Source: Gemmatimonadota bacterium
GTDB lineage: Bacteria > Gemmatimonadota > Gemmatimonadetes > Gemmatimonadales > GWC2-71-9
Length of the DNA: 64,000 nucleotides
Assembly (NCBI GenBank): GCA_039586365.1
Contig: JBDHKN010000002.1
Span: 1 to 64,000 of the forward strand
Direction: 5' to 3'
In this document: positions 33,372 through 57,241 of the stretch, in pieces
Numbering within the stretch: position 1 is the stretch's first letter
How the letters are laid out: every line of letters begins with the position of its first letter
Notes under the pieces: model-generated
Seen by the model: the letters and a program-made list of their open reading frames with translations, nothing else
What the model was told of the DNA's origin: nothing
Databases searched by the model: none
Translations under genes and position numbers: made by a program

Positions 33372-33374
33372 ACG

Positions 33375-34568: not shown

Positions 34569-34638
34569 GCGACCCCTAACAGTACGGGTCTGGAGAGGCT
34601 GGCAATACCCTGACTGCAACCGTCGAGCGGAGGCCGAG

Positions 34639-36454: not shown

Positions 36455-36469
36455 CGCAGGGAAATTGCA

Positions 36470-36952: not shown

Positions 36953-36953
36953 C

Positions 36954-38051
36954 ATGGCCCGTGTGCATCGGTGGTTGGCGGTCTTTCAGGCGTGGCTTGA
37001 CCAACGTGTCGAGCTAGATGCCTTTAAGGCACTTGTCAAGAAGAAGGAGGTACCGGTACATCGACACACTGTCTGGTATTACCTGGGAGGGATGACCCTC
37101 TTCCTGTTCGTGGTTCAGGTTGCCACGGGCATACTCCTGCTCTTCTATTACCGACCGAGCGCGGAGGAAGCCTTCGAGTCGGTTCAGTTCCTGATGGCAG
37201 AAGTCGAATTCGGTTGGTTGGTGCGCTCGATCCACTCATGGGCGGCCAACATAATGATCTTCACTCTGTTCCTCCATCTCTTCAGCGTGTTGCTCCTCAA
37301 GGCATACCGCCCACCGCGAGAGATCACTTGGTTCTCTGGCGTAGCACTTCTGGCAACTGCCCTGGGGTTCGGGTTCACTGGGTACCTGCTACCATGGAAC
37401 GAACTGGCGTACTTCGCGACGCGGGTCGGAACGGAGATTACGGGCGCGATACCCCTCGTGGGAGACTTTCTACTCCGGGTCGCGCGTGGCGGAGATGATG
37501 TCACCGGTGCGACACTCACGCGATTCTACGCGTTTCATGTGGCGGTGCTCCCAGCAGTCACGACCGCGCTCTTGGGCATCCACTTGCTCCTCGTTCAGAA
37601 GCAAGGCATGAGCGTCCCGCCTAGTGTGGAGCGCGCAAGCGGCGGTAAGCGGGTGATGCCTTTCTTCCCGGACTTCCTCCTGCGGGACCTCGTGGGTTGG
37701 CTCGTGGCGTTGGCATTCCTCGCTGCGCTGGCTGCATATTTCCCGGCGGAACTCGGGGAGAAGGCCGACCCCTTCTTACCGGCCCCCGCAGGTATCAAGC
37801 CCGAGTGGTATTTCATGTTCATGTTTCAGACCCTGAAATATCTGCCGGCCCACATTCTCGGCATCGAGGGTGAAGTCGTGGGCATTCTGGGGTTCGCCTT
37901 GGGTGGTGTCCTCTTCCTACTCATCCCGCTGTTGGACCGCCGCACGGGCCGCGGTGAGCCCAGCAAGTTGTTCACGTGGATCGGGATAGGGATCATTGTC
38001 TACGTGGTCGTGTTGACCTACCTCGGCTACACGGTGGATCCCACGACGTAG
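36954..38051 (+). CDS. Cytochrome b of a Rieske/cytb complex (b6-like plus subunit IV fused)
   Basis: IHSW...LHL, FHV...IHL heme His pairs; GYLLPW; IKPEWY. Confidence 0.95.
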
Positions 38052-39869: not shown

Positions 39870-40268
39870 CTAACCGGCTGGTTTGTGGCACAGCGTGCAG
39901 TACTTGACGTCTCTTCCCTCGTGGCTGGCTGGAGCGTCAGGCACAGGCTCCATGGCACCAGCTTTGTGACACATCATGCACTGCTCACGCCCGGCGATGT
40001 CGTGCGGTATTGCCTTGGCATCCGCTGTGAGCATCGGTGAGTCCGTGGCATGACACCACAGGCAGCTCTCGTTGCCCCGGTCGGCATGACTAGCCGGGGC
40101 GTCTGGTACGGGCTCCATGGCACCGGCTGTGTGGCACATCAGGCACTGCTCACGCCCGGCTGTGTCGTGGCTAACTGGCTTGGGCCTATCCTGAGCCAGT
40201 ACTGGTGCCGTCCAGAGACCCGCTACCAACACGAATCCAGCGACGGCAAAGAAACGGCCATGCTTCAT
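39870..40268 (-). CDS. Small periplasmic tetraheme cytochrome c (tandem diheme duplication)
   Basis: Signal peptide (VLA/Q); CLMCH, CLWCH, CMMCH, CTLCH; internal ~55-aa repeat. Confidence 0.9.
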   Translation of the reverse strand: MKHGRFFAVAGFVLVAGLWTAPVLAQDRPKPVSHDTAGREQCLMCHTAGAMEPVPDAPASHADRGNESCLWCHATDSPMLTADAKAIPHDIAGREQCMMCHKAGAMEPVPDAPASHEGRDVKYCTLCHKPAG

Positions 40269-40556: not shown

Positions 40557-41471
40557 CTACCCCACCCCAGGAATCGACGAACCGTGACAGACAGAACACA
40601 TCGAGGGGTTCTTGTCTCTCAGCCGATCGGCATCGAATCCCGGTCCGTGCGGATTGACCCTGCCTGACAACGCAGAATGGCAGCGCAGGCAGTCGCTCTC
40701 AGCGTGGCACGCCACGCATGATTCGAGACTTTGCCGCGCAGCCTGTCCGTGCCCGGCAATGAAGTTTTGCTTGGCGTCGTGGTAACGCGACCCAATACCC
40801 CCGATCGCCGTGAGGCCCGCCTGAAGATGGCAGCTGGCGCAGAAGGAGCGCACGTTGTGGCAATCGCTGCACGAGAGTTCGCGAGTATACGCAGCCGTTG
40901 GGTGCTCGGACAGGAAATTGGCTGGATGATAACCAGGGGATCCCGTGGCGGGGTTCGGCTGGTGGCACTCCAAACAGTCACCCCTCACATGGCAACCAGC
41001 ACAGGTTTCTGGCGCTGCCGCAGCTTCAGCTGAGTGGCGATTCCGGAAATCGCTGCCGTGCCACACCGAAGGGCTATTGAGCGCCTCCGACTTGCTGTGA
41101 CAGTCGCGGCATTGGCCAGCCATCGGAAGCTCTCCGGCCACCACATGACAGTCAGCGCACTCATTGCTTGCAGCTTCGATGTGGCGTCCGTGCTCGAACC
41201 TCAGATTGGACTGTGGCCGCGGCTCGGTCGGCGTCCAGTCTATCGCGGGCTGCAGATTGCCGTCGTGACACGCCGCGCAAAACGTCGGCTGCGGATAGGG
41301 AGAAGCATCCGGCTGCGTTACACCACCGTGGCACGCGTCACACCCGAACAACCCCGCATGCTTATCGTGGGGGAACGGCTTCGAAATAACGACTGACGCC
41401 AAAGGAGCCCATCCCATTCCCACGGCAACCGTTGTCACCGCCAGCAACGCCAACAACTTGATCGCTCTCAT
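40557..41471 (-). CDS. Periplasmic undecaheme cytochrome c
   Basis: Signal peptide; 11 CxxCH; overlaps the porin stop (ATGA). Confidence 0.92.
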   Translation of the reverse strand: MRAIKLLALLAVTTVAVGMGWAPLASVVISKPFPHDKHAGLFGCDACHGGVTQPDASPYPQPTFCAACHDGNLQPAIDWTPTEPRPQSNLRFEHGRHIEAASNECADCHVVAGELPMAGQCRDCHSKSEALNSPSVWHGSDFRNRHSAEAAAAPETCAGCHVRGDCLECHQPNPATGSPGYHPANFLSEHPTAAYTRELSCSDCHNVRSFCASCHLQAGLTAIGGIGSRYHDAKQNFIAGHGQAARQSLESCVACHAESDCLRCHSALSGRVNPHGPGFDADRLRDKNPSMCSVCHGSSIPGVG

Positions 41472-42982
41472 CGTACCCCCCTTCCTTCGGGAATGCGGAG
41501 AATGGCAGGATGCAACCCACCTCCTCTTGGTGTAGTCCCGAAGTCAAACGACAGCCCCGCGTTCAGTCGCCACTGGTCCCAGCTGAGGCGTGCGGCGTCA
41601 CTGCGTTGGCGGACTTCGTCATAGCGACGCACCTCTGCGTTCAGACGAACACCGCCGACTGTCCGATAGTCGAACCGCAGCGCGTATGACCGGACGTCGG
41701 CCTCGTTGAAGCGGAACTCCAGGGGTCGCTGCAAGCGTTGGGCGTGCCCCGTCACGCTGAGCGCCTCGGTCGGAGTGAAGGTAGCTAGCCCCTCGTACCC
41801 CACAGACCTGGAGCCCAGACCCTCGTCCACCCAGTGGCCAGCTTCGAACCTCCAGGCCCTGAGGCCATTATAGGCAGCCCCCAGCTTCCAGCGCCACCCG
41901 TCCGACTCCACCTGTTGTAGTCGCGTTGAGGCCTCGGTGTCGTCGAACTCGTAAATCTCACCTGACGTCCTCACCTCCAGTCCACCAATGGGAGAAATCG
42001 AGAGCGACCCGAATCCTGCATTGTAAGGTACCGGGCTGAACGCTCCCCAAATCGTCCACAGATCGAAACGAGGTCTGTACCGGCGGGCACCCACCGTCAG
42101 GCGTCCCATGCCTCTAGGTGCGATGTAGGTCGCCGAGGCGTCCGCAGTTCCCCACAAGCCGGCCGCCACGTCATACTCAGCGCCACCCGATACTGTGATG
42201 TTGCTTGCAGGGCTCAGATCCAGATCGAATGCCACTCGATCGGACACCAGGTTCTCCGATTCAGGGTCGATCTCTCGCTGCCAAATCGCCTGTCCAAAAA
42301 CCTGCGAGAACGACAGTCCCAGCCCAGCACCAACTATCAGTTGGCGATCACGGGGCTGGAATTCGTCCAGTGGGTTTAGAGCACCACTTGTCACCGGGAG
42401 TGCCACTCCTCGCGCCAAACCCCAACCACCATAGCCCAGCACCCGCAGTTTCCGACCCAAAGGCATGACTTCGGCTTTCACTCCATCGAAGCCAGTCCAT
42501 CCGAATCTCGTGGCAACATGTGTCCGGCCCGCCTGTGCAACCAGACTCCGTTGGGTGTACTCGAGGTACCCTTCCAGCAGCTGTACCTCAGGATCGGTGC
42601 CGGGCCAGACGTCCGCCTTGGACAGGTCAGTGCCGAAACGCACTTTGGTGTTCAGTCGTAAGCCGGAGACGCCGAAACCCCAGGCACTGGCATCCACAGT
42701 CGCCACAACCGGGTGCCCTCTCAGATCCGGTCCTGGACGGTAGAACGTGCAGTACTCCACGCCTGCCGGGCAGTAGGCGGCATAGCCGTCAGCGGTGAGG
42801 AAGGACCCATCACCGGTGAGTCGCACATCGGCAGCCAATACGCTGTCGATAGAGTACCCGCGGTACGATATGCCCTGGTATCGCGCGTCGAGTCGTGCCC
42901 GATAGCCCTGGGCACTGACGGGCGCTGCCCATGTCACGACGATCCCGACGGCCAAAGTTGCCAACAGCTTCGATGACTTCAT
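41468..42982 (-). CDS. Outer-membrane beta-barrel protein (porin of a putative porin-cytochrome conduit)
   Basis: Signal peptide, alternating amphipathic aromatic/Gly-rich strands, terminal LNAGLSFDF strand; coupled to a multiheme gene. Confidence 0.75.
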   Translation of the reverse strand: MKSSKLLATLAVGIVVTWAAPVSAQGYRARLDARYQGISYRGYSIDSVLAADVRLTGDGSFLTADGYAAYCPAGVEYCTFYRPGPDLRGHPVVATVDASAWGFGVSGLRLNTKVRFGTDLSKADVWPGTDPEVQLLEGYLEYTQRSLVAQAGRTHVATRFGWTGFDGVKAEVMPLGRKLRVLGYGGWGLARGVALPVTSGALNPLDEFQPRDRQLIVGAGLGLSFSQVFGQAIWQREIDPESENLVSDRVAFDLDLSPASNITVSGGAEYDVAAGLWGTADASATYIAPRGMGRLTVGARRYRPRFDLWTIWGAFSPVPYNAGFGSLSISPIGGLEVRTSGEIYEFDDTEASTRLQQVESDGWRWKLGAAYNGLRAWRFEAGHWVDEGLGSRSVGYEGLATFTPTEALSVTGHAQRLQRPLEFRFNEADVRSYALRFDYRTVGGVRLNAEVRRYDEVRQRSDAARLSWDQWRLNAGLSFDFGTTPRGGGLHPAILRIPEGRGVR

Positions 42983-43065: not shown

Positions 43066-45909
43066 CTACTGATAGCCGAACAGCATTGCGTATACTATCA
43101 GCGCGATCAGGGTAAGGCCAATAGCTAGGGCAGTGAAGCCCAGCACCTTGAACATCACTTGTAGTTTCCGAGGATACGGATGCGCTAGGTGCTCCGCCAG
43201 TTTCCCCTCTCGTACAAGCTCTTCGTATTCCCTGGGCTTGTCCTCCTTCAACTCCTCCACTGATACCCTACCCGTGAATATCACCGGGTCCATGGGAAAT
43301 TTATCAGGCCGGAAGTGGGTGTTGAAGAAGTGGATTGTGAAAATGAAGCCCACCGCCAACAAGGCTTCGTCACTGTGCACGATGGTAGCCACGTTCACCC
43401 ACCACCCTGGGATCACTGCAGTGAAGAACTCGGGGAACCACAGGAGCAGGCCGGTCGAACCGATGACCATCATGCCCCAGAATACCGCGAAGTAGTCGAA
43501 CTTCTCCCAATAGGTATATCGTCCGTACTCCGGACGAGGGCCGCGGCCCAGGAACCACTTGATCGATCCCCAGAACTCCCTGAGATCTGTCTTGTTGAAG
43601 ATGAGGGAATTCTCGGAAAAAATGAACCTCACCCAGTTCTTACCTGACGCCTTCTTCTGCTTGAACACATCAACCAGATGGACGATGAACACCGTGATCA
43701 GGGCAACCGCTCCAACCCGGTGCAAGAACCCCGTCGTAGTGAAGCCACCAACGACTGAAGAAATGACCTGCGCCCAACGGGCATAGGAGAATTTCAGCAC
43801 CATCCCCGTCAGCGCCAGGGTGAAAAAGCTGAACAGCATGACCAAGTGCAACCCACGGTGGAACGTACTGAAGCGCTTGTACAGCTTCTCTTCGGGAGCG
43901 GGCTTGTGTCGTTTCCAGACACCGGGCGACCGGGTCAGCCTGAAGAGCCAGGCCCCGGTATGAATTAGAGCAAAGGTGAGCGTGCCCACCAGCAGCGCCG
44001 TCATTCCCCAGAAGGCATAGAAGAGTAAGGGGTACTTGTCCTGGTCGTGGTGTGTAGCGTGGGTCAGATAACCCGTGAAGCGACGGTTGGCACCTGGGTG
44101 ACAGGAACTGCAAGTCTCGATGATGTTCCGCCGGCTCAACGTAGATGCGGGCTCTGATGTCGGTAAGATGTTGTGGGTTCCGTGACAATCGTAGCACTTC
44201 GCGGCAGCGGCGTCACCCAGCCGAGACACCTTCCCGTGGAAGGTGTCAAAGAAGGTCTCTGCCTCATCGGTATGGCAGTTGCCACACTGGGTCATCTCGC
44301 GCAGGCGGAAATCTGCCAGGTCCGTGCGACTGATGGAGTGCGACGTGTGGCAGTCTTCGCAGGTGGGGAGCTCGGTCTCTCCCGCTGCCTGACCATTGCC
44401 GGGCCAGTGAATGCTGGCCATGAATACCTCTGCGATTCCGTGATGACAGCTGCCGCACGTTCCTGCGAGGTTGTCGCGGTGTACAGACGACTCAGGGTCA
44501 TCGGGTGCCAGCTCTTTGTGCGGCGTGTGGCAACTGGGGCAAGTCGCCGTAACCACCAAGCCGCTTTCGAACAGGCCCTTCCCATGGATGCTCATTTCGT
44601 AGCTCTCCACGGGAGGAACTAGCTCTAGCGTCTCTCCCAGTGCAACCAGCGGTTCCTGCGCTGCCTCATCCAGTTGTCGGGCCAGATGGTTAGACTCGAC
44701 CCGAACGGCAGCTTTCTGCCCCCGACGGTGGCAGTTGGCGCACAGCCCCGGAACGTTGCGCGCAAAGGTAGGAGACGCAGGAACCAAATGGCTCTGTATC
44801 GCGTGTTTGCCGTGGCAGTCGAGGCAAGTCGGCGCATCGGGATCATTCTGAGCGACCAAGCGACCATGGATACCCGAGGTGTAATCACTCACCTGTTCGG
44901 TGTGGCAAGGGCTGCAATCGACAGGAGATGAGATCGTGGCGCAGGGCCGCGTCAACGTGATGCTGACGTCACTGTGGCATTGGGCACAAGGTGTATCCGA
45001 GTGGACAGATAGATTGTGCGCCTGCTCATCTACGTAAAGTGAAACCGAGTCACCCTGAGCGATACCTGTGAGATTCGGATCACTGTGGCAACGTAGGCAG
45101 TTCTGATTTGCCGCACCCGCTTCGTACAACACGCCTCTAACGGTGTGCGGTGCGTGGCAGTCGACGCACACCGGGATCATGTCTGGCTGTTCCCGCCAAC
45201 GCCGGCCCTCGATCACCTGCCGATGTACCTGTTCGATCTGCGAGTGACACTGCTCGCATGTCCTCGCCACATTGTTGTGATTGATGCTAGATCGCGGATC
45301 AGTGTGCGGCAGTATGAAGTGTGACGTGTGACACGAAGTGCAGACTGCAGTGACCGTGAGTCCCTGTCTGAACAAACCCTCGCCGTGAATGGAAAGCGAG
45401 TAATTGACCAGGATCGAATCCTGCGGAATGTTGCGTGTCCTGGCAACGGGCGCACCTTCCCTGTGGCACTCACCACAGAGGAAGGGGATGTTCATCACCC
45501 TTGTGGGCGATCGCGGATCTGTGTGAGACAGTACGTCGTGAGTCCCGTGACAATCCTGACAGGTGGGTGCCAATAGGTCCCCACGCGCGCCAGCCTGACC
45601 GTGAAGTGACGCTGTGTGTTGTCTCTGTTGCTCGGCATGACACATGCCGCAGTCGACCTTGAAGCGGTCCTCCGGGTGTGGAAACTCCAAGCCCATGTGG
45701 CAGGTCGTGCACTGCATCTCCGCGCTGCCGTGGACCGAACCCGAGAACGTCTCTGTGGTGACAACCAATCGAGGTGCCTCAGCCGCCGGAAACATCGCGG
45801 CATTCCCGTGACACATGAGGCATGTCTCACTGTCCTGAGCCGCGGTCGGGATGGCCGCGAACAGGCTCACAATCACGAATCCAAAGGACACAACGAGAAT
45901 CTTCCGCAT
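43066..45909 (-). CDS. CbcL-like fusion: 19-heme cytochrome c plus FdnI-type cytochrome b
   Basis: 19 CxxCH then TM region with RYTYWEKFDYFAVFWG, HSDEA, HFF; start at MRKILVV. Confidence 0.9.
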   Translation of the reverse strand: MRKILVVSFGFVIVSLFAAIPTAAQDSETCLMCHGNAAMFPAAEAPRLVVTTETFSGSVHGSAEMQCTTCHMGLEFPHPEDRFKVDCGMCHAEQQRQHTASLHGQAGARGDLLAPTCQDCHGTHDVLSHTDPRSPTRVMNIPFLCGECHREGAPVARTRNIPQDSILVNYSLSIHGEGLFRQGLTVTAVCTSCHTSHFILPHTDPRSSINHNNVARTCEQCHSQIEQVHRQVIEGRRWREQPDMIPVCVDCHAPHTVRGVLYEAGAANQNCLRCHSDPNLTGIAQGDSVSLYVDEQAHNLSVHSDTPCAQCHSDVSITLTRPCATISSPVDCSPCHTEQVSDYTSGIHGRLVAQNDPDAPTCLDCHGKHAIQSHLVPASPTFARNVPGLCANCHRRGQKAAVRVESNHLARQLDEAAQEPLVALGETLELVPPVESYEMSIHGKGLFESGLVVTATCPSCHTPHKELAPDDPESSVHRDNLAGTCGSCHHGIAEVFMASIHWPGNGQAAGETELPTCEDCHTSHSISRTDLADFRLREMTQCGNCHTDEAETFFDTFHGKVSRLGDAAAAKCYDCHGTHNILPTSEPASTLSRRNIIETCSSCHPGANRRFTGYLTHATHHDQDKYPLLFYAFWGMTALLVGTLTFALIHTGAWLFRLTRSPGVWKRHKPAPEEKLYKRFSTFHRGLHLVMLFSFFTLALTGMVLKFSYARWAQVISSVVGGFTTTGFLHRVGAVALITVFIVHLVDVFKQKKASGKNWVRFIFSENSLIFNKTDLREFWGSIKWFLGRGPRPEYGRYTYWEKFDYFAVFWGMMVIGSTGLLLWFPEFFTAVIPGWWVNVATIVHSDEALLAVGFIFTIHFFNTHFRPDKFPMDPVIFTGRVSVEELKEDKPREYEELVREGKLAEHLAHPYPRKLQVMFKVLGFTALAIGLTLIALIVYAMLFGYQ

Positions 45910-46147: not shown

Positions 46148-48094
46148 TCAAGCCTCGGAGCTTGCTCCAGACTCCTCCCCTACGTGCGCGATCTCCTCTT
46201 TGTACCAGCGGCCGTGATGTTCCTCCGCAGTCTTCTTGGACATCTTGCCAGTCAGCCAGGTCCAGTTCATGGGATACTCGCCAGGATAGAAGAACACGAA
46301 GAAGAAGTGCCAAACGACGATGGCCAGCGTCGCCAACCAAGCCTCGTAGTAGTGGATAGTCTGCGAGATTGTAACGGCGATTGCCGGTAAGAACCCAACC
46401 GCCACTGTCGGGAACCATAGCACGAAGCCTGTGAGGGCCATTACGACTGTCCCCCAAACCAGCGCCCAGTATTCTGCCTTCTGCGTGTAGTCGTAACGGC
46501 CGAACTTGGCTTTCTTCTCGCTGCGCCATGTGTAGTACTTCATGTTAGCCCAGAAATCCTTCACGTCTTGCAGGTTAGGCAGCATCGCCCAAAACTCTTT
46601 CCTCCCGCGTTTGACGGAGATGATGTACCACAGGTGGCTGAGAGATACAAGGACCATGACAACAGCACCGATGCGGTGGAGAGTCGAACGTACCGGTTCA
46701 GTCATACCCACTACGGACAACTGCTTCACCCACCAAGCATCGGGGAACCTCAGCGCAAATCCCGTGAGCACCAGCAGCCAAAAGGACACCAAGAGACCCA
46801 CATGTTGTATTCTCTGTACTACATCCAAGCGCAGGATTGACTCGGCGGACATGGCCTCCTTCCGGCGCTTGATGGCGTAGAAACTCAGAATCACCACGTT
46901 GTGGAGCAGCATACCGCCGATCGTAAGGGCGATCAACCAAAGGTAGACGCTCTTTATCAAGCGATTGATGGGGTTGGATATGACGGATGTGGCCTCATGC
47001 GTGTAGCTTGCAGCGAACTGTTGATCCGCACCGGGGTGACATTGTTGGCAGGTTTGCACGACGTTGCTGATGTAGATCGTGGACGTAGAGTCCGATGCCG
47101 GCAAGACCCGGTGCGTCGAGTGGCAGCTGACACAAGTGGCCGCAAGCTCGTAACCGCGCCGCGATGCCCAGCCATGGTAGCTGTCCACATATGAGCCTAC
47201 TTCGCCTCCCCTGAGACCATAGGTAGCCACAATGACCGGATCGTCATGGCAGGTGCCACAGGTTTCCGTAGCAAGTCGCGCCGCGTATGTGGTGGCATCA
47301 GGATCGTTGTGTGAGAGGATTAGGTGTTCCCCGTGGCAGTCATTGCATGTGGGGCTGTCACTCACTCCAGCCCGTAGAGCTCTACCGTGAATCGATTGTT
47401 CGTACTCGATCTGGACATCTTGGTGGCACTTGCCGCATGTGCTCGAGACGTTCATGTGGCTCACACTAGACGTGGGATCGTCGGGTGATCCGAGATTGTG
47501 CACCCCATGACAATCGTTGCAGTTTGCTGCGGCGCTGATTCCCTCCTCAGACCGTTGCCCATGAATCGACTCAGCGTAGGATACCGCAGGCCGAGCAACC
47601 TTCACGATAGCATCGGTGAGAAGACCCTGGGTCCCGTGACAAGTGGCACAAGTGGCAGGAACATTGAGTCTATGCGTCGGCGCCCTGGGGTCCGCGCTCC
47701 GCAGTATTCCGTGAGTGCCGTGACAAGTCTTGCACGCGGGCGCGTTCGGACTGCCTCGGTCCAGCGCATAACCATGCATGCTGCGTTGGTAGATATCAGC
47801 AATCGCCGAGTGACAGCTGCCGCAATTCACCGTGGGCATGTCGTCTGGATGCGGAAAGATGACACCCTGATGACACATTGCACAGGAGAATCCAAGTACC
47901 CCGTGGACCGAGTTACTGTATTCTTCCTGTGCCACTACTAGCCGTGAAGGATCCTCTGTACCCGCGAACAGTGACACGTCCGCATGACACATCATGCAGG
48001 GTAACTCACCCTGAGCAACCAAAGTACGGCTATCTATGACTACAGCTGCGACGGCGGCGATCAATGCCGTCAGTCGTGTCGCACGCATACTCAT
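46148..48094 (-). CDS. CbcL-like fusion: 11-heme cytochrome c plus FdnI-type cytochrome b
   Basis: 11 CxxCH then QRIQH, RYDYTQKAEYWA, HYYEA, WHFF. Confidence 0.9.
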   Translation of the reverse strand: MSMRATRLTALIAAVAAVVIDSRTLVAQGELPCMMCHADVSLFAGTEDPSRLVVAQEEYSNSVHGVLGFSCAMCHQGVIFPHPDDMPTVNCGSCHSAIADIYQRSMHGYALDRGSPNAPACKTCHGTHGILRSADPRAPTHRLNVPATCATCHGTQGLLTDAIVKVARPAVSYAESIHGQRSEEGISAAANCNDCHGVHNLGSPDDPTSSVSHMNVSSTCGKCHQDVQIEYEQSIHGRALRAGVSDSPTCNDCHGEHLILSHNDPDATTYAARLATETCGTCHDDPVIVATYGLRGGEVGSYVDSYHGWASRRGYELAATCVSCHSTHRVLPASDSTSTIYISNVVQTCQQCHPGADQQFAASYTHEATSVISNPINRLIKSVYLWLIALTIGGMLLHNVVILSFYAIKRRKEAMSAESILRLDVVQRIQHVGLLVSFWLLVLTGFALRFPDAWWVKQLSVVGMTEPVRSTLHRIGAVVMVLVSLSHLWYIISVKRGRKEFWAMLPNLQDVKDFWANMKYYTWRSEKKAKFGRYDYTQKAEYWALVWGTVVMALTGFVLWFPTVAVGFLPAIAVTISQTIHYYEAWLATLAIVVWHFFFVFFYPGEYPMNWTWLTGKMSKKTAEEHHGRWYKEEIAHVGEESGASSEA

Positions 48095-48243: not shown

Positions 48244-50229
48244 CTAACCGCTCAGTGAACCCACCTGGTGGCATGCATCGCACACCAACGGAGCGTTGTG
48301 CTCCACTTTGTCAGTATGACATACGGTACAGACCTGGCGACTCCACTTGTCGATTCCCACAACCGCGCCCCCATGACACTGCGAACACTGCAGGTGAGCG
48401 AAGCTCAGCGCATGGTTGGATTTCGCTCCCTCTCGATGACAGGAGAGACAAGTTGCCTCGGGTTGGTGGTGCCGATCGTGACAGGTGTCGCAGTTGAGGC
48501 CTCTAGCACTCATGGACGGTGTCTGGTGGCACATCGCGCAGGCCAGATCTGCTTCACGGTGCGGTTCGTGCGAAAAGTCGCCCATTGAATGCACCTGCAC
48601 CTCTGAAGGGGCACCGCCCACACCCTCATGGCATCGAGCGCAGTTCATCGCTCCGATCTCGCGGTGGTGGCAGGAGTTGCACGCCACCACGCTCGCAAGC
48701 GTTGTCTTCCCGTGATCGTCCAGCGGTGTATGACAGGCGGTGCATTCGAGTCCAGCACCGACCGCGTGCCGTTCGTGACTGACAATTCGGTCTCTGAACC
48801 GCACATCCCTCCGCTCGACGCCGAGGTGGCAGCTGAGGCACACATTGTCATTCAGCTTCGGCCCTAAGTCGACGGTCGGAACCCCAAAAGGCAGGCCACC
48901 ATCCATAACGGCTTCATTCATTAGATCCAGAGCAGCCCGCAGCAGCTCGTCGGCAAACGCGACATTGTGCGTTCCTCTCCCGACTCTTACGAATTCGAGG
49001 TTCTCTTCCGCCAGGCTCAGGAGGCTATCAATCTTGGCCCGCGAGCGAATGGGCGCGGAACCAGCCGCTCTGCGGGCACCAGCAACCACCTGACTCACTG
49101 ACACCAGTCTCCGCTGCATCTCTTGCTGCCAGGAAGGCAGGATGTTGGCATAACGGATACCGTGACAAGACAGGCAAGTGGCCTCACCGGCCAACTGGAC
49201 TTCCTCGTGTCCCTCGACCTCACGCGGTAGCCCGTGGCAACTCTGGCATGACACTCGAGCTAGGAACATTGAGCTGGGCATCTCCTCAGCACCGTGACCA
49301 CCCAACCCTGCATAGAGTCGTTGCTGCGCCTCGTGCGTACGCTGGTGACAGGCGCGGCAGTCAAGGTCGAACGTGGGCCTTAGCGAGACAACCCGATGGT
49401 CCATTCGCTCGTGACATTGGGTGCACTCGACGTTGTGCTCCGCTATATGAGTCCGATGCACCAACTCAGTGTTGTCGAACAAAACAACGCGTTCCGGCTC
49501 GTTGTGGCAGTTGAAACAGCGCGACTCCTCAGCTAGTCCAGATCCCGAGACGACCTCACCGTGACAAGAAAGGCACGACACCATGTCCCGGATGTACTGC
49601 GGGTGATCAACCACGAAGCCAGCCGGTGATTCCACCCGAGGCGGTGACTTGTGACAGCCGGTACACCCCGCTATGGGCTCACCCTCGGGTGTCTCCTTGA
49701 AGTGACAGAGATAGCATGTCGACTCGGTGACCCTGAGGTGGTCACCCTGAACGATCTGCGAGTGACAGCTGGTGCAGCGAAGTTGCTTGCCGCGCCGCAG
49801 CTCGCCCAAATGGTGCGCGTGGTCGAACTGGATCCCTCTGAACACCACGATGCCTTCGAGCTTCCTCTGCTCATGACAGCCCGAACGGAGACACGCCGCA
49901 TCTTCTATCTCCGCCCAAGGTTTCATGCCATAGGTACCGGTCACGTATTTCACGACCTGGTTGGCAGCCTGGATCTTGCCCATCGCCTCGGCCCTGATCC
50001 CTGGCGCATAGTGGCACTCGATACAGGGCACGTCGTTGTGGGATGAGCCGGCCCAGGATTCGTAGTAGGGAATCATGATGTGGCAGTTGTCGCAGAACCC
50101 TGGCTGAGCGCTGTATTCGATGAAACCAACGGTGCTCACGGCCGCCAGAATCACGAAGAGGACCCCTACCTGGATCAGGATCCTGACCGGTCGGGCGAGT
50201 CGCCGGAATCTGTGCGACAGGTCTGTCAT
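48244..50229 (-). CDS. NapC/NirT-headed giant multiheme cytochrome c (21 CxxCH plus 1 CX4CH)
   Basis: N-terminal TM, FCDNCH.M...Y.SW..SSH..V.CIECH; CLRSGCH; central helical region with GTHN. Confidence 0.9.
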   Translation of the reverse strand: MTDLSHRFRRLARPVRILIQVGVLFVILAAVSTVGFIEYSAQPGFCDNCHIMIPYYESWAGSSHNDVPCIECHYAPGIRAEAMGKIQAANQVVKYVTGTYGMKPWAEIEDAACLRSGCHEQRKLEGIVVFRGIQFDHAHHLGELRRGKQLRCTSCHSQIVQGDHLRVTESTCYLCHFKETPEGEPIAGCTGCHKSPPRVESPAGFVVDHPQYIRDMVSCLSCHGEVVSGSGLAEESRCFNCHNEPERVVLFDNTELVHRTHIAEHNVECTQCHERMDHRVVSLRPTFDLDCRACHQRTHEAQQRLYAGLGGHGAEEMPSSMFLARVSCQSCHGLPREVEGHEEVQLAGEATCLSCHGIRYANILPSWQQEMQRRLVSVSQVVAGARRAAGSAPIRSRAKIDSLLSLAEENLEFVRVGRGTHNVAFADELLRAALDLMNEAVMDGGLPFGVPTVDLGPKLNDNVCLSCHLGVERRDVRFRDRIVSHERHAVGAGLECTACHTPLDDHGKTTLASVVACNSCHHREIGAMNCARCHEGVGGAPSEVQVHSMGDFSHEPHREADLACAMCHQTPSMSARGLNCDTCHDRHHQPEATCLSCHREGAKSNHALSFAHLQCSQCHGGAVVGIDKWSRQVCTVCHTDKVEHNAPLVCDACHQVGSLSG

Positions 50230-51476
50230 GACGTGCGGTCCCGCCCGGCCAAATCCCTGAACTTGAACCAGGCAAACACAATCGCAGAGATGGCAAGGAA
50301 CCACACCGGCACTAGCAACAGCTTGTGTTCCCAGCGGCGCTCCGCTCTCACTTCGGCGGTAGTCCGAACCAGCTCGGTGTTTGAGCGCACACTGCGGGCG
50401 AGTTCGTCAAGGAGGTCCACGTCCAGACTGTGCAGTGCCAGCGCCATCTGCCGATACTCGGTTACCGCCGTTTGGTACCGGAACCGCTCGTCAGAAACTT
50501 GCTTGCCGCCGACTGTCAGAGTTGCTATCGCCTGCTCAGCGGAGACCAAATCCGCAGCTGCTTCAACCACCGACTCTTGCAGGTCCACACCTAGCAGTCC
50601 CGCTCGGCTGCTTGGCTCATGGCAGTTGACGCAGACTGAAGCGATTCCGTCCGGAGGCACCCTCTCCGTACCATGGTTGCTGTGACATCCCAGGCATCCG
50701 GCGAGCTCGCCATCCCGGGACGGCTCATTGTGAGGTCCCTGAAGAAACGCTCTCCCGATCAGAAGGTGGCAGTGGTCGCAAACGTTCACTACTTCATTGA
50801 CGCCGGGCGGAAGTGCGGCGTGGGAACCGTGACAACCCATACACGTAGGAGCCGCAAAATTCGATCTCTCGAAGACTGCGATTCCATGAGCGCTGTTTCG
50901 ATATTCCGCGAACTGGTCTGTCGGAATACCGTACTGCTGCATCAGCTGGGCATCCTCATGGCAACGGGCGCAGGTACCCGGGATATTGGTCGGGTAGACG
51001 TTGCTCCTGCCGTCTTCCGGGGGAAGAATCGTGTGGGCGTCGTGGCAATCGGTGCAGGTCGGTGCGTTCAGGTCGCGCCGTTCGAGAAGCAGCTCGCCGT
51101 GTCGGCTGGTGCGGAACTCGGCCAGCTGACCGGCTGGAATGCCGTACTGGCGCATCATGTCTGCGTCCGCGTGACACGACGAACACAGTTCGATGGTCGC
51201 CAGCTTCCCCGGAGTGCCGATATACCGCCCACGGTGCGCTTGGTCTCGCTCGTAGGAAGTGGGATCGCCACCGTGACAGTCGTGACACCTGATACCGTGT
51301 TCCGAGTGGATTCCCAGCGTGAATGCCCTGCGTTTCTCGGCGTGGCAGATGAGACATCCATAAGTGGTATCGGCGGCCATACTCAGACCACCCTGCTGGT
51401 CGGCGCTCCACGCGGGTGCTGGTAGCAGCCAGCCGAGAATCCCGGCAGTCAGGGCGAGTCGCATTGTGTTTCTCAC
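50226..51476 (-). CDS. Nonaheme cytochrome c with C-terminal TM (paralog of 35168-36454)
   Basis: Signal peptide, 9 CxxCH with similar spacing (CHGGDP, APTC), helical stalk, TM. Confidence 0.92.
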   Translation of the reverse strand: MRNTMRLALTAGILGWLLPAPAWSADQQGGLSMAADTTYGCLICHAEKRRAFTLGIHSEHGIRCHDCHGGDPTSYERDQAHRGRYIGTPGKLATIELCSSCHADADMMRQYGIPAGQLAEFRTSRHGELLLERRDLNAPTCTDCHDAHTILPPEDGRSNVYPTNIPGTCARCHEDAQLMQQYGIPTDQFAEYRNSAHGIAVFERSNFAAPTCMGCHGSHAALPPGVNEVVNVCDHCHLLIGRAFLQGPHNEPSRDGELAGCLGCHSNHGTERVPPDGIASVCVNCHEPSSRAGLLGVDLQESVVEAAADLVSAEQAIATLTVGGKQVSDERFRYQTAVTEYRQMALALHSLDVDLLDELARSVRSNTELVRTTAEVRAERRWEHKLLLVPVWFLAISAIVFAWFKFRDLAGRDRTS

Positions 51477-52801
51477 GGCTCCCTCCCAGCGGGGTCGGAG
51501 TCTTCTTCACCTGGTGCGGGACGGGGCGGCGTTGGGCCTAAATCTCTGAGTGGCAGCCCGGCCTCTGGAATCTCAGACGCACCTCGCACGGACTCTGCAG
51601 CGGGTCGCGACGATGGACTTACCGATCGGATTTGACGTCCCGTGAGCCAGGCCACACCGAAACCGATGAAGAAGATCAACCCGAGAGCCGCAGCTAGGGG
51701 CCTGTGTCTCAGCCGCCTTTCCGGCCTACGGTCAAATAGCGGAACCAGCACTAGGCTAAATCCAAGTAGTGTGAATCCCGTAAGACCCCACGGACCGAGG
51801 AAGCGAATGAGAGCGAGCGACACATCGACCGGGACCCAGGTGGATACCAGTTCACCTGGAACCAGATACGGATTCGCGGCATCCCCCACCGGTCGGGGGA
51901 ACAGAGCGGCCAACGAAATGGCTACAGCAAGAACCAAGACCACCACTACGAATGACCGGAGAAGGTGGTTCGGGAAGAACGGGATGCCCTGCGGGAAGTC
52001 CTCCAGTTTCCACTGCGCACTTGCGCGCCAAGAATCTCGATCCTCACGGACGTCAGTCGGAGGCGCGACACCCCGACGGCGAACGAGTGTGAAATGGTAA
52101 ACCAACAAGACCAGCGCAATCCACGGCAACACGATCACGTGTAAAGCGAAGAAGCGACTCAGCGTGGCACCCGAGACAATAGCGTCTCCCATGATTGCTT
52201 CCGTGATGACACCGCCCAGCAGCACTGTGCTCGACATCACGTCTAGCACTTCCGACACAGTCCAATAAGCCCATTGGTCCCACGGAAGCAGGTACCCTGT
52301 GGCACCGAAGGCGAGAACGATGAACAGCAGCAGCAGGCCGACGAGCCAATTGGTTTCGCGTGGCGGCTTGTAGGCAGCCGCGAAGTAGACGCGCCCCATA
52401 TGCGCCAGCACAGCGAGCACGATCAGATTGGCGGACCAAACATGCAGGTCGCGTATCAGCCATCCAAATGAGACGTCTGAGACAATGTGCTGTATGCTCG
52501 GGTAGGCCTCCTGTACCGACGGCCGGTAGAACAAAGCGAGGAGGACTCCTGTTACCACCAAGATCATGAAGAGGAGGTACGTGATCCCACCAAACGCATG
52601 GCGCCACCCGACGTGCGGCGGCAGCCGGTAGCGCAGCGCCTTCTGCAGTGCTTGGTCGATTCGCAGGCTGCGATCAATGGGCCCATAAAGGAGTCCGAGG
52701 AAACGAGCTACACCGAGAATGCTGGCGTCGGTGCTCGCCTTGATGTCGGTCCACATGTTCGTGAACCAACTCGTCACCGCCCTCCACGTTCGCCCGATCA
52801 T
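51473..52801 (-). CDS. Cytochrome b paralog retaining four heme His but lacking PEWY
   Basis: LHVW...AHM, LHV...YHF, GYLLPWD; ELVSTWVP at the PEWY position. Confidence 0.9.
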   Translation of the reverse strand: MIGRTWRAVTSWFTNMWTDIKASTDASILGVARFLGLLYGPIDRSLRIDQALQKALRYRLPPHVGWRHAFGGITYLLFMILVVTGVLLALFYRPSVQEAYPSIQHIVSDVSFGWLIRDLHVWSANLIVLAVLAHMGRVYFAAAYKPPRETNWLVGLLLLFIVLAFGATGYLLPWDQWAYWTVSEVLDVMSSTVLLGGVITEAIMGDAIVSGATLSRFFALHVIVLPWIALVLLVYHFTLVRRRGVAPPTDVREDRDSWRASAQWKLEDFPQGIPFFPNHLLRSFVVVVLVLAVAISLAALFPRPVGDAANPYLVPGELVSTWVPVDVSLALIRFLGPWGLTGFTLLGFSLVLVPLFDRRPERRLRHRPLAAALGLIFFIGFGVAWLTGRQIRSVSPSSRPAAESVRGASEIPEAGLPLRDLGPTPPRPAPGEEDSDPAGREP

Positions 52802-53256
52802 GCTTCATCCCCAACGTACACCACGCCGTTTCGCAAGAAGACCGAGTAGCGCTGCAACGGCGTGGTGGTAAGACCTGCAACGACGTTGCCCTGCAGATCG
52901 AAGACAACGTAATTGCAGGGAGACACCACTCTCAGAGATTCCAGATCCCAGCGCAGCACGCAGCCGTCTTTGGGGGATGTTCCCTGCAGCCCGACGAAGC
53001 GTTGCTCGCCACTCCGCACCACCAAAACCGTCCTGTCCCCCCAACTCACTATACGGCTCGCACCAACCGGAAAATCGGCTTCTCGCGCCACCCTAACACC
53101 GGGCAGCAGTTCTGAGATTTCCAGATGCTCCCGAGGCAACACGTACAGGGCAAGGATCAAACCCAACCCGGCCAGCATCAGGAGGGTCACGGCACCTAGC
53201 AGGAGATCGTTGAAGCCAAGTTTGGCGGGTTGGCTCTCATCGCCCATATCAATCAT
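52798..53256 (-). CDS. Pseudo-Rieske protein without Fe-S ligands
   Basis: TM plus Rieske-like layout; SPKDGC and SPCN boxes; FD.QG.V.AG...PL..Y.V; no twin-Arg. Confidence 0.8.
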   Translation of the reverse strand: MIDMGDESQPAKLGFNDLLLGAVTLLMLAGLGLILALYVLPREHLEISELLPGVRVAREADFPVGASRIVSWGDRTVLVVRSGEQRFVGLQGTSPKDGCVLRWDLESLRVVSPCNYVVFDLQGNVVAGLTTTPLQRYSVFLRNGVVYVGDEA

Positions 53257-53441: not shown

Positions 53442-54992
53442 TCAATCCCGCGTTCCCCGCGACGGTTGTGCGTCAATCGTCAAATCGACTCCGGCTGGCA
53501 GCACGATCCCGTAGTGGTCCGCTGCCGCGGTGATAGAAGCCTTCAGAAGGGCCTCGAGGAATGGTGGATTGTGGACTCCATTGCCACTAGTGGGATGGGC
53601 GCCGAACTCAACCGTGTCGTTCGCGGCCACCACAATGAAGGCCTCCCGGAAGTATGGCGTGTCGTCCGTGGCCGCCAGCTGTGCATTCCATAGCACTCCC
53701 TCAGCGAACGTGAACAACGTGTCAGACACATCCAGCTCTTTCGGACCAATGGTCGCAACGATCTGTGCCAACACGCCAGCATCGGTGGGAGCCGCGTCCA
53801 GGTGGTCGTCGCCGTTGGAGTCGACCCAGATCTGGCCCAAGAGTACATTCAGCTCGTCGGCGAACGCTTCGTAGATCGCTTGGGAGTTGGCCTCGGTGCC
53901 ATGACAGCTTGCACAGGCGCTGAACGTGCGCTCGTCGTTAGTGCAAGGACCGGGCTCCGGAATCCCGTCCGCATCCACACACGGAATGGCCTCAAAGCTG
54001 TGTCCCACGCTTTGGAAGAATTCGGGCTGGGTCACAGTGAACGATGCAACGTGGCAGGTTGCACAAAGACCGGGATTGACGGCGGGATTGCCGTGGGCAC
54101 CGGTCAATCCATCTAGCCACTCGAAGCCCGGCGCCCACCAACCGATGTTCTGACCGAGCACCAAAGGACCTTGGGCACCGTGCGGCCCGTGCGTAGTTGC
54201 AGTCGGTACCGTCGTCGTACTATGACACTTGATGCAAAGGTTGTTCTTCGTGGCTACCGAGATCGGGGCCCGCAATTGGCCGGGATTCGGGCCGCCGTGA
54301 GGGTCGTGGCACACCGCACACGTGATGTCCAACAGCTCTCCGGTACCCTTTTCCAGATAGTCCGCCGACACCCCGAACTGACTCTCGAGCGCTTTCGTAC
54401 CCTCATGACAATCGTTGCACGGCGACCTTCCCTTGGCGAAGCTGGTGGTGTTCCCGTGGCGGGACTCCTCCCACTGCTCGACAAAGGGATGGTGTGCGTC
54501 GCTGTGGCATTCGCCACATCCGTTGGTGGCAGCCTCGCCAACTGCGATTGACGCTAGGGGTCGTGTGAACGTCGGATCGCTCACATGGTTGACCCCTGGG
54601 CCATGGCAAGATTCGCACTGCACATCTTGATACGCCGAATCGGCGACCAAGCTAAACCCAGCCGGTTCAGCCAGCGCGTTGCCCAGCTCATTGACCGTAT
54701 GGCATCCCTCGCATGATTCCTCCGCGAAATCGGAACTCTGCAACCCAGCCCAGGCGTCGGCATGTGCTGTCTCGGCCCATTCAGCCTGCTTGTCGGCATG
54801 GCAGTTACCGCAGGTCGTCTGCTTCTCCGCCGTCAGGTAGTAGCCCAGGAAGCCGGAGGCAGCATCCGGCGGCGGGTTGAACGGCTCTACATCGCGGAAA
54901 ACAATGTCATCTTTGGTACAACCCGTGGCCAACACCACAGATGCCACGAACGTTGCGAGCCAGCGACGCGAGGAAAACGGATGTTCGTGCAC
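53442..54992 (-). CDS. Nonaheme cytochrome c lipoprotein
   Basis: Lipobox LATG-C; 9 CxxCH; C-terminal GVHN helical region. Confidence 0.88.
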   Translation of the reverse strand: MHEHPFSSRRWLATFVASVVLATGCTKDDIVFRDVEPFNPPPDAASGFLGYYLTAEKQTTCGNCHADKQAEWAETAHADAWAGLQSSDFAEESCEGCHTVNELGNALAEPAGFSLVADSAYQDVQCESCHGPGVNHVSDPTFTRPLASIAVGEAATNGCGECHSDAHHPFVEQWEESRHGNTTSFAKGRSPCNDCHEGTKALESQFGVSADYLEKGTGELLDITCAVCHDPHGGPNPGQLRAPISVATKNNLCIKCHSTTTVPTATTHGPHGAQGPLVLGQNIGWWAPGFEWLDGLTGAHGNPAVNPGLCATCHVASFTVTQPEFFQSVGHSFEAIPCVDADGIPEPGPCTNDERTFSACASCHGTEANSQAIYEAFADELNVLLGQIWVDSNGDDHLDAAPTDAGVLAQIVATIGPKELDVSDTLFTFAEGVLWNAQLAATDDTPYFREAFIVVAANDTVEFGAHPTSGNGVHNPPFLEALLKASITAAADHYGIVLPAGVDLTIDAQPSRGTRD

Positions 54993-55756: not shown

Positions 55757-57241
55757 CTAGTTGTGAATGCCGTTAGCCTTCGTTGCCAGCTCCGCCATGG
55801 TCCTCTGGCTGAAGCCCCCGCCCTCCGCAGATACCGGGTCCGTATGACAGGAATAGCAGGCAAAATCGAGAGTCACCCATCCCTTGTCCATAAACGTTCC
55901 ACCGGCATCGAACATGTTGTCCTTGATCAGATTGCCATCGGTGTTGATTCCGAAGATGTGGGTGCGCACGTCACCCTCAAAACCGTGCACTGCTCTCGCT
56001 GACATCGTGGCCCGCGGCATATGACAATCCACGCAGCCCGGAGCCGAATTATGCGAATTGTTGGCCGCCTGATCCGGGTGACAACTTTCACACGTTGCCA
56101 CTATACCCCCGTTGGCAGCGTTGCCGTACAGGACGCCAACATGTGCGTCATGGCAGTCGTTGCAGCTCAGGTTTGCGTGAGTTCCCGCCAACAGCTCATT
56201 GTACTGTTCGTGATGTCTGATAAAGCCACCACTGGCAGGGATGGTCTGAGCGTCACCGCGGATATGGCACTGACCGCACAATTCTGCGCTGTCGTCTACC
56301 GTGATGTCAGACCCTGATTGGCTCGCGACATGATTCGCACCGGGACCGTGACACGCTTCGCAAGTAATCCCCGTCTCCTCCCAGGTACCAGCTATGCCCA
56401 CAAGACCATCCTGATGCACGCCACCATTGTCAGCAAAGCTCTGCCATCCAGTTGTATGACAGGCGCCGCAATCGTACGGCTTCCGTTCAGTATCTGTCGC
56501 CTGGTATGGTACCCACTCCGATGGCAGGCCACCCCCCAAGTCACTCCGCGGCAGGTTGTACTGCACGTCGACACCGTCCATCGCATTGGTCATGACCCAA
56601 CCCGAATCGGCGGTTATGTAGCGTGCTTTCCACCCATACCCCCCAATCACGTAAGCTATGTCGCTCCAGGCCGCTCTCGAAGCCCCGGGTGGAGGCGTCG
56701 GTACCTCGCTGTGTGGATACTCGGGCGCTTGCCCGTTCACGATCTTGTTCAGCTTGTAGGGATGACCCGAGTTGAGCATTTCCTCGGAGTAGTTGAAGTG
56801 ACAGTTCCTGCATACATGGCTAGTCACGTAGCCCCGCGCCGAATGCGCGATGATCGCAAAAATACCGTCACTCTCGTCCTCGCCCGTCTGCCCGATGGTA
56901 TCCTTCGCAACCGCCTTCACGGTTACGCTGAACACGTTGGCATCGGGAACCGTCCAAGTGTAGCTGGAGCCTGTGACACCGCTGGCGATCATGGCTTCAA
57001 AACCACCAGAGAGATAGCTGAGGTCGACGCCCACCACTCCAATATCGTCCGTCGCGGTCCAAGTGATCTCAACGTTTGAACCTGGCTGAACGACTTCACC
57101 ACCGTTGGGGGCTGTGAGCTGAATGGTGGGTGGGTTGTCCTCCGGAGAGACGATCGGCTCCGTCCCATCGTCACACCCCGCAACCAGCCCGACAACCACG
57201 AGCACAGAGAGTCCAGCTAGCAACTTTCGCACTGGCTTCAT
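55757..57241 (-). CDS. Octaheme cytochrome c lipoprotein with N-terminal Ig-like domain
   Basis: Lipobox LVAG-C; APNGGE...ITWTATD...YTWTVP Ig-like strands; 8 CxxCH; start MKPVRK. Confidence 0.88.
   Translation of the reverse strand: MKPVRKLLAGLSVLVVVGLVAGCDDGTEPIVSPEDNPPTIQLTAPNGGEVVQPGSNVEITWTATDDIGVVGVDLSYLSGGFEAMIASGVTGSSYTWTVPDANVFSVTVKAVAKDTIGQTGEDESDGIFAIIAHSARGYVTSHVCRNCHFNYSEEMLNSGHPYKLNKIVNGQAPEYPHSEVPTPPPGASRAAWSDIAYVIGGYGWKARYITADSGWVMTNAMDGVDVQYNLPRSDLGGGLPSEWVPYQATDTERKPYDCGACHTTGWQSFADNGGVHQDGLVGIAGTWEETGITCEACHGPGANHVASQSGSDITVDDSAELCGQCHIRGDAQTIPASGGFIRHHEQYNELLAGTHANLSCNDCHDAHVGVLYGNAANGGIVATCESCHPDQAANNSHNSAPGCVDCHMPRATMSARAVHGFEGDVRTHIFGINTDGNLIKDNMFDAGGTFMDKGWVTLDFACYSCHTDPVSAEGGGFSQRTMAELATKANGIHN

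Follow-up and report, generated by a model that had tools for sequence, protein, structure and literature searches.

The 64,000-nucleotide stretch of the Gemmatimonadota contig JBDHKN010000002.1 analyzed here (the window) carries two paralogous gene sets, each encoding a Rieske-type protein, a cytochrome b and a 9-haem cytochrome c, one of which appears to have kept the architecture of a Rieske/cytochrome b complex without its catalytic hallmarks. Set A (35168-38051, + strand) is canonical, as the original prediction, made from the DNA letters alone, had it: its Rieske protein carries the twin-arginine motif SRRRF and the cluster-binding boxes CTHLGC and CACH, and its cytochrome b the KPEWY signature of the quinol oxidation (Qo) site. 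Set B (50226-53256, - strand) encodes, in order, the Rieske-like protein psR (P0001), the cytochrome b cbB (P0002) and the 9-haem cytochrome c9B, and continues downstream into the cytochrome c22. All of these open reading frames (ORFs) lie uninterrupted at their predicted positions, nine CxxCH motifs can be counted in each 9-haem cytochrome, and the 22 haem sites ascribed to c22 consist of 21 CxxCH motifs and one CX4CH. The ATGA overlaps said to couple the set B genes are present at the first and third junctions, the second being GTGA. The two sets comprise the same three component types; they differ in gene order (c9-Rieske-b in set A, Rieske-b-c9-c22 in set B) and share only 26% identity between the Rieske proteins (E 4e-9), 36% between the cytochromes b and 33% between the 9-haem cytochromes. 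Together with the 9-haem phylogeny described below, which groups set B with an intact operon from another family, these values speak against the initial description of set B as a degenerate twin of set A, a term that, on sequence grounds, overstates their kinship.

Both cluster-binding boxes have been rewritten in psR (CTHLGC → SPKDGC and CACH → SPCN), with all four 2Fe-2S ligands replaced and the two disulfide-forming cysteines, Cys99 and Cys114, retained, and the N-terminus reads AKLGF where the twin-arginine motif would be expected, all as originally predicted; the source genome does encode TatC. The same picture emerges from 117 psR homologues taken from 255 candidates, where cysteine is found neither at position 94 nor at position 112 and histidine not at position 115 (0/117 each), histidine occurs once at position 96, the disulfide pair is present in 116 sequences (the remaining one is truncated), and an RR.F motif is found in one and a loose RR motif in two. 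A histidine one position beyond the ligand site, at 116, is seen in 31/117 homologues and cannot restore the cluster site. The family has conserved features of its own, including Asp97 (107/117), the Ser112-Pro113 pair (116/117) and family-specific invariant residues such as Arg68, Trp72, Gly73, Trp103, Ser112 and Pro113. psR has no match in Pfam, PF00355 included; a search with a profile built from 83 homologues finds the Rieske domain of Chlorobaculum, 8hn2 (E 1e-12), and the psR structure model (predicted local distance difference test score, pLDDT, 87) retrieves the same domain as its top fold match (root-mean-square deviation 1.3 Å over 96 columns), with the kuste4569 domain ranking third. 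Both the profile match and the model thus point to a Rieske fold rather than an unrelated one, with an anchoring transmembrane helix at the N-terminus. In canonical Rieske proteins, the retained disulfide is a structural element (PMC7908018). Other partial ligand losses were noted separately in the Rieske-like proteins P0153, P0182 and P0203 (CPRTGC/CPCD; no box I; CPH-GC/DPCH), and the ESM Atlas clusters ranked second and third for P0001 may contain further cluster-less Rieske-like proteins; these clusters, of about 170 amino acids and found most often in Actinomycetota (0.90) and Chloroflexota (0.89), serve as leads only.

The partner cytochrome cbB keeps the four haem-ligating histidines (His120, His134, His221 and His236) and reads STWV opposite PEWY, again as predicted. 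Across its closest homologues, the best 119 of 1492 matches, all four histidines are kept in every sequence and a PEWY-like motif in none (0/119, and likewise 0/63 locus-derived sequences); the site reads [ST][ST]W[VIA], and tryptophan is the only residue of PEWY that remains. The changes in the Qo region extend beyond this motif. At what we take, from motif alignment, to be the positions of the WGA glycine and the ef-helix tyrosine, the family carries Thr181 (115/119) and Ser328 (112/119), respectively; Trp177 is found in 114/119 homologues, and Glu184 (115/119) and Asp326 (117/119) are conserved polar residues new to cbB. Bulky residues at the WGA glycine block quinone binding in bc1 complexes (PMC7908018). 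On the N side of the membrane, the cysteine for haem ci is replaced by Ala69 within an AFGG motif (Ala in 108, Met in 8 and Val in 3 of the 119), and the bc1-type aspartate of the quinone reduction (Qi) site corresponds to Ser283; Arg241 is present in 119/119, His279 in 117/119 and His68 in 103 homologues. The best solved relatives are cytochrome b6 chains (2zt9_A, E 1e-54), subunit IV matching more weakly (E 7e-6), and the cbB model (pLDDT 80) resembles bc1 cytochrome b folds. Since cbB fuses the b6 and subunit IV portions, it is not of the split b6f type with CxGG, and it bears a cytoplasmic N-terminal extension that has invariant residues and is modelled with high confidence as helices. Loss of PEWY alone is not unusual: the variants APWY, PPWF, GPWF and SxWF have been published (PMC4122944; PMC5600118), the last in subfamily L of Dibrova et al. 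(2017), where serine replaces proline as in STWV (PMC5600118), and PDWY and PVWY are also in print. What the literature searched did not describe is the pairing with a ligand-less Rieske protein.

A pattern scan returned 70 loci, 68 of them assigned to Gemmatimonadota; the pattern spans the altered box I, so that the loci are preselected for that state. Within them, cbB follows psR in all 66 loci with room for it (in two as read-through ORFs), c9B comes next in 58/59 and c22 in 53/55. The replacements are the same in the 117 psR and 119 cbB homologues, at 49-95% identity and in 7 of 12 sampled family groups, and, bar the single His96, no close homologue was found to retain cluster ligands or PEWY. 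Pairwise ratios of nonsynonymous to synonymous substitution rates (dN/dS; Nei-Gojobori, pairs with dS 0.05-1.5) are below 1 in all usable pairs, with a median of 0.31 and a maximum of 0.72 for psR (1732 of 2346 pairs) and a median of 0.25 and a maximum of 0.47 for cbB (1633 of 2016 pairs), values that are inflated by saturation, the closest pairs giving about 0.06-0.2. The set A medians are 0.21 for the Rieske protein (52 of 78 pairs) and 0.13 for the cytochrome b (28 of 45). psR and cbB are under purifying selection, cbB being somewhat less constrained than its set A counterpart. The losses of ligands, twin-arginine signal and PEWY hence co-occur across homologues under selection, which bears out the original view of a concerted, selective loss rather than random decay. 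That set B is a pseudogenising copy of set A or a product of sequencing error has next to no probability in the face of shared replacements, dN/dS values below 1 and a gene order kept in 70 loci; in its favour are the weaker selection on cbB (median 0.25 vs. 0.13) and the frameshifts or broken c9B genes in a few metagenome-assembled loci (L020, L038, L048, L058 and L062). Natural cbB-c9B fusions were also considered and rejected, since likely frameshifts or an N gap account for the read-through ORFs in L020, L038 and L044.

The closest intact relatives of set B lie outside the class of the source organism. Two genomes of another family, G009 and G006, carry the set B gene order with an intact, twin-arginine-bearing Rieske protein (CPHKGC/CPCH and CTHKGC/CPCH, respectively), a cytochrome b with PEWY or PDWY (in two frames in G006), and 9-haem and 20-haem cytochromes. 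Despite the PEWY or PDWY motif and the Rieske ligands, these cytochromes b (L101:5437-6543 in G009 and L102:8416-9520 in G006) have lysine at the WGA glycine position and arginine in place of the GY tyrosine. Two 9-haem trees join the G009 and G006 proteins with c9B (support of 100 in the Shimodaira-Hasegawa-like approximate likelihood ratio test; 95/92 with L188 as outgroup), and the set A cytochrome groups with 9-haem orthologues of a different, class-level family in a separate clade, which argues that A and B split early. The cytochrome b trees place neither G009/G006 nor L188 beside cbB with support (G009 is a long, unplaced branch in a quick tree, and deep joins are unstarred in a b6-domain tree), in the Rieske tree psR groups neither with the G009/G006 proteins nor with that of L188, and a profile of the cbB N-terminal extension ranks G009 first among 52 rows, several of them duplicates, at a nonsignificant 5.8 bits. 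With the cytochrome b and Rieske trees unresolved, orthology to G009/G006 rests on the 9-haem trees, the gene order and c22. Judged by these, set B is an old lineage whose apparent sister operon retains an intact Rieske protein.

A further state is represented by the metagenome loci L187 and L188 (two of six returned), where the Rieske protein has three of the four ligands and no disulfide cysteines. Both loci (L188:905-4938 and L187) encode a split cytochrome b6 with CFGG, Thr181 and a LIYGPVD-like N-terminal motif, a subunit IV with PMWL, a 9-haem cytochrome and a NapC-like 10-haem cytochrome, followed in loci of this type by a gene for what we take, from its sequence, to be a Rex-like regulator. 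Because the L188 9-haem cytochrome forms a long branch outside both A and B, we treat L188 as a more distant relative. In the lineage of P0154, P0181, P0291, P0411 and P0412, the first histidine and both disulfide cysteines are lost, the cysteine and the Cys-x-x-His being mostly kept (P0411 has asparagine for that histidine). A NapC-like cytochrome is thus linked to all three states, intact, three-ligand and ligand-less, and we infer that this partner came first and that the Rieske/Qo site was made dispensable more than once. The metagenome loci L189-L192 present what looks like another eroded bc-type complex, in which intact Rieske ligands (CTHMNxC or CTFMDDC with CPCH) stand beside a split cytochrome b6 whose last helix D haem histidine is apparently glutamate or asparagine, and the Rieske protein and subunit IV have short extra N-terminal domains.

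For the set B complex itself, we modelled one copy each of cbB, psR and c9B, without haems or c22, and scored the c9B interface. The score was 0.68 vs. 0.00 for the best of three controls, with contacts agreeing to at least 93% between runs and a partner pLDDT of at least 81; the score mark is met by 116/157 solved and 2/215 mismatched pairs, counts that are only roughly valid here, and part of the score may be owed to likeness with solved complexes. In the model, the c9B transmembrane (TM) helix packs against cbB helix E, resembling cytochrome c1 or f, the c9B stalk contacts the cbB ab loop and the psR 71-76 hairpin region, and the empty tip of psR (residues 93, 97-100 and 113-116) meets the haem 7 motif of c9B (236-239). 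Apart from this motif, only residue 208 of the c9B haem domain is named, unnamed residues being uncertain rather than absent, and the named contacts of the haem domain are all with psR and none with cbB. Given stalk helices of about 25-30 residues, the c9B haems would lie far above haem bL.

This predicted geometry bears on two alternative roles. In the first, cbB would be a quinone-reactive, non-bifurcating wire that uses a remodelled Qo or N-side site and passes electrons between haems bH and bL and the nearest c-haem, as a redox loop if they run inward. The invariant haem histidines, the conserved Arg241, His279, His68, Glu184, Asp326 and Thr181, the invariant residues of the N-terminal extension and the dN/dS median of cbB all favour such a role, and a c22 haem could bridge the gap from bL to the c-haems. 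We nevertheless consider it unlikely, as the modelled cbB touches only the stalk and TM helix of c9B, whose haem domain would be distant from bL, and as Ser283 and Ala69 have replaced the Qi aspartate and the haem ci cysteine. In the second, the empty Rieske tip would hold a replacement redox or metal site, formed by the Cys99-Cys114 disulfide or by a metal on Asp97 and the cysteine pair, perhaps with Glu184 and Asp326 of cbB. The near-invariance of the cysteines, Asp97 and Ser112-Pro113 and the modelled position of the tip against haem 7 are compatible with this idea. Two-electron thiol chemistry, however, couples poorly to one-electron haems, the disulfide is already accounted for structurally in canonical Rieske proteins, and the related three-ligand lineage lost the disulfide instead; such a site is therefore very improbable.

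A candidate for the quinol chemistry, absent from the earlier account of this DNA, is found at the N-terminus of c22, which matches NrfH (PDB 2j7a, E 4e-7; NCBIfam TIGR03153, E 1e-12 and 48 bits, below the cut-off of 134) and scores above the cut-off for PF03264. Met52, in the CxxCHxM motif of haem 1, and Lys85 are invariant (56/56), and in CymA the lysine matching Lys85 is needed for the interaction with quinol (PMC2762525). psR was called present (E below 1e-50) in 42 of 401 Gemmatimonadota genomes sampled; 40 of these 42 encode c22, and within the class no genome has c22 without psR. In family f10, five of the six loci fetched contain a c22 homologue without an adjacent Rieske/cytochrome b pair, so that a c22-like domain can occur alone.

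Set B lacks what defines a Q-cycle Rieske/cytochrome b complex yet, by its sequence, clearly descends from one; it likely cannot run a classical Q-cycle, as bifurcated quinol oxidation would be impossible without the cluster. We therefore propose, at a probability of roughly 45%, that set B is a stand-alone, non-Q-cycle quinol-to-multihaem module for extracellular electron transfer. In this proposal, psR would act as a cofactor-less brace that fixes c9B and, having no cofactor to carry, would no longer need export by the twin-arginine pathway; periplasm-side quinol chemistry would have moved to the NrfH-like domain of c22, rendering the Rieske/Qo site redundant. Both electrons would enter the c-haem chain, yielding fewer protons per electron and making low-potential acceptors usable, with canonical complexes such as set A serving high-potential ones. 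Haems bL and bH would be kept for folding, perhaps also for a side path to the altered N-side site, which is the weakest step of the scheme.

Several observations weigh against this proposal. The acidic distal residue of NrfH at haem 1, Asp89, corresponds in c22 to Asn90 (56/56), followed by Gln (42) or Met (14 of 56) at position 91, so the predicted quinol activity of c22 is not certain; the f10 homologues have glutamate at position 90. The two CbcL-like b/c fusions already in the operon could oxidise quinol. The four haem histidines and many N-side residues of cbB are as invariant as those of an active enzyme, more than a scaffold would need, and Glu184 and Asp326, facing the old Qo crater, may form a new active site. 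The modelled arrangement may also mislead, as it is a single-copy prediction without haems or c22 and real dimers swap the Rieske head. A search of the 86%-complete source genome for quinone biosynthesis returned no futalosine-pathway match and no MenB match over the cut-off. Finally, a cytochrome b other than cbB was detected with PF00032, a profile that misses some cytochromes b (e.g., the copy on contig C92 of the source genome), in 40/42 set-B genomes vs. 99/359 others; with 42 genomes at a completeness of about 95%, incomplete assembly would by chance leave about two without a match, and set B may thus depend on a canonical partner.

The last of these observations also favours a reading in which set B would supply the non-catalytic half of an asymmetric dimer, paired with a canonical Rieske/cytochrome b monomer, from set A or elsewhere, whose low-potential electrons would cross from bL to bL into cbB. 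Both A and B indeed retain an aromatic residue, three positions before the helix D histidine, which we take to serve as the bL-bL bridge; in 12/70 loci, psR has a set A gene within 10 kb; and some genomes without set A (G046) have another Rieske/PEWY cytochrome b pair closing the same gene run. The suggestion that set B always accompanies the canonical triad does not hold, however: the 9-haem orthologue of set A is present in 31 of the 42 set-B genomes and absent from 11, including G046 (100% complete) and G207 (99%), and ten genomes have A without B. Set B hence does not need set A. Nine of the 11 carry another canonical Rieske/cytochrome b (seven an RPEWY cytochrome b/c fusion, one PDWY and one PEWF), and these belong to three distant lineages, which is hard to fit with a co-evolved interface; in the other two, G191 (96% complete) and G269 (93%), cbB is the sole PF00033 match. 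Set B is moreover linked to c22 and the cytochrome cluster rather than to A, and the co-occurrence can be explained by kinship, the genomes not being independent, and by shared lifestyle. We consequently hold the heterodimer to be doubtful. An elaboration of it appears less probable still: the canonical partner would bifurcate, and the low-potential electron would enter cbB by bL-bL transfer and leave through a membrane-proximal c22 haem; equally improbable is its corollary that the Qo site, Rieske cluster, Qi aspartate and haem ci were removed to prevent short-circuits or dumping of electrons on quinone. If true, the cell would exploit quinone-based bifurcation to deliver electrons to minerals or partner cells at potentials below that of quinol, and a heterodimer of any kind would be a natural counterpart of the engineered asymmetric bc1 dimers.

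Among the known systems closest to set B are the cytochrome b6f or green-clade Rieske/cytochrome b complexes, with which cbB shares PPHV..GGIT, Arg241 and Phe284 at b6f positions and psR its profile and fold match to 8hn2. In contrast to b6f, set B has no cluster ligands, twin-arginine signal, PEWY or haem ci cysteine, its b6 and subunit IV portions are fused via a variable linker, and 9-haem and 22-haem cytochromes replace cytochrome f. The Geobacter Ext (Cbc6) cluster likewise places a Rieske/cytochrome b pair (ExtO and ExtP) among multihaem genes, together with ExtQ and the porin ExtI (PMC5877670). It differs in that ExtO has been described as a Rieske Fe-S protein and that the accompanying cytochrome b is mostly of the split CxGG form; against the ExtP model (cut-off 290), cbB reaches 210 bits, no better than the 221 of set A, and no other Ext model is matched at E 1e-4. 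The anammox complexes Kustd1480-85 and Kuste4569-74 combine a b6-like core with hexa- and octahaem cytochromes instead of cytochrome f (PMC12954380), and differ in their cluster-binding Rieske protein and in an NAD(P) oxidoreductase, none being seen in set B. Under the stand-alone reading, the likely functional analogues are Geobacter CbcL and CbcBA and the NrfH/CymA family, which oxidise quinol into multihaem chains without bifurcation; these lack a Rieske/cytochrome b scaffold, and c22 in turn has no acidic residue where NrfH has its Asp. Geobacter ImcH, CbcL and CbcBA are parallel quinol oxidases for acceptors of different potential, with different yields (10.1101/2021.04.15.440034). In the literature searched, with supplements limited to those of PMC5600118, we found no description of a cluster-less Rieske protein in a cytochrome b complex, and the available portions of PMC3509893 and PMC12954380 cover only cluster-bearing complexes.

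What defines the family of Rieske/cytochrome b complexes is the Rieske cluster together with the Qo site, and a conserved version without either would represent a scaffold reused without the Q-cycle. New in this analysis are the sister operon with its intact Rieske protein, the relative with three ligands, the two-sided co-occurrence counts and the complex model. The related states form a natural series, from an intact cluster (G009 and G006) through three ligands without the disulfide (L187/L188 and the P0154 group) to no ligands with the disulfide kept (psR), in which one can ask what roles dimerisation, the b haems and the head of the Rieske protein have apart from bifurcation. The family also points to extracellular electron transfer that depends on potential among uncultured members of the Gemmatimonadota.

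The genes around set B, listed in Table 1, read as a porin-cytochrome cluster, to judge from the CbcL-like fusions, the probable beta-barrel and the multihaem cytochromes.

Table 1. Genes and motifs of sets A and B and of the surrounding cytochrome cluster, in window coordinates
Feature	Position	Strand	Characteristics or basis
psR, cluster-less Rieske-fold subunit, 152 aa	52798..53256	-	single TM helix; twin-arginine absent, cluster ligands replaced, Cys99-Cys114 retained
Rieske box I remnant SPKDGC, residues 94-99	52960..52977	-	alignment to set A Rieske
Rieske box II remnant SPCN, residues 112-115	52912..52923	-	alignment to set A Rieske
cbB, b6-like fused cytochrome b, 442 aa	51473..52801	-	four haem His, Ala69 (no haem ci Cys), remodelled Qo region, conserved N-terminal extension
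STWV replacing the PEWY Qo motif, residues 320-323	51833..51844	-	alignment
c9B, 9-haem cytochrome c, GTG start	50226..51476	-	helical stalk, C-terminal TM anchor; predicted partner of cbB and psR
c22, 22-haem cytochrome c	48244..50229	-	N-terminal TM helix, NrfH/NapC-like putative quinol dehydrogenase domain (CxxCHxM, Lys85)
11-haem c and FdnI-like b cytochrome fusion	46148..48094	-	CbcL-like architecture
19-haem c and FdnI-like b cytochrome fusion	43066..45909	-	CbcL-like architecture
Probable outer-membrane beta-barrel	41468..42982	-	no Pfam/NCBIfam match; closest named clusters in the Atlas are porins (0.92), lead only
11-haem periplasmic cytochrome, adjoining the probable porin	40557..41471	-	motif count
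4-haem cytochrome	39870..40268	-	motif count
9-haem cytochrome, lipoprotein-like N-terminus, upstream of psR	53442..54992	-	homologue precedes psR in many related loci
8-haem cytochrome, immunoglobulin-like domain, lipoprotein-like N-terminus	55757..57241	-	sequence features
Set A 9-haem cytochrome, paralogue of c9B at 33% identity	35168..36454	+	alignment
Set A canonical Rieske protein (SRRRF, CTHLGC, CACH)	36470..36952	+	motifs
Set A canonical cytochrome b (YLGG, four His, PEWY)	36954..38051	+	motifs

Promoter and terminator scans of the region are no richer than shuffled sequence (5 vs. 5.3 and 8 vs. 11.6, respectively), and the RNA run X1, in which 7% of words matched, yielded a handful of short contigs, of which two, each 151 bases long, are identical inside c9B at a depth of about 2, and thus no evidence of transcription. 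By sequence, neither the 19-haem fusion nor c9B matches a solved structure; the 9-haem cytochrome upstream of psR has a single weak solved relative, 6i5b (E 3e-8). In several genomes (L008, L010, L012, L016, L030, L039, L045, L046 and L050, at the ends of the loci, and L117), a different Rieske gene comes directly after the set B run's porin and 16-haem genes, followed, where visible, by an RPEWY cytochrome b/c fusion. Cytochrome b6-like domains of about 500-530 amino acids (L129, L140-L145, L185 and L186) were seen in 8 of 15 genomes searched for PF00033, and in the one tested, L129, the domain is fused to an Fe-S/HdrA-like part.

The source genome encodes two more Rieske/cytochrome b sets with intact Rieske boxes, on contigs C64 and C92. 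The former (C64:14860-18184) is of the PEWF type and is followed by an HAO-like cytochrome with eight haems and by a molybdoenzyme similar to periplasmic nitrate reductase, both labelled from sequence, and the latter (C92:17199-21835) is of the APWY type. Within the window, an 8-haem cytochrome, a 4Fe-4S protein and an NrfD-type membrane subunit upstream of set A (31846-35055, + strand) make up what appears to be a further quinone-reactive module.

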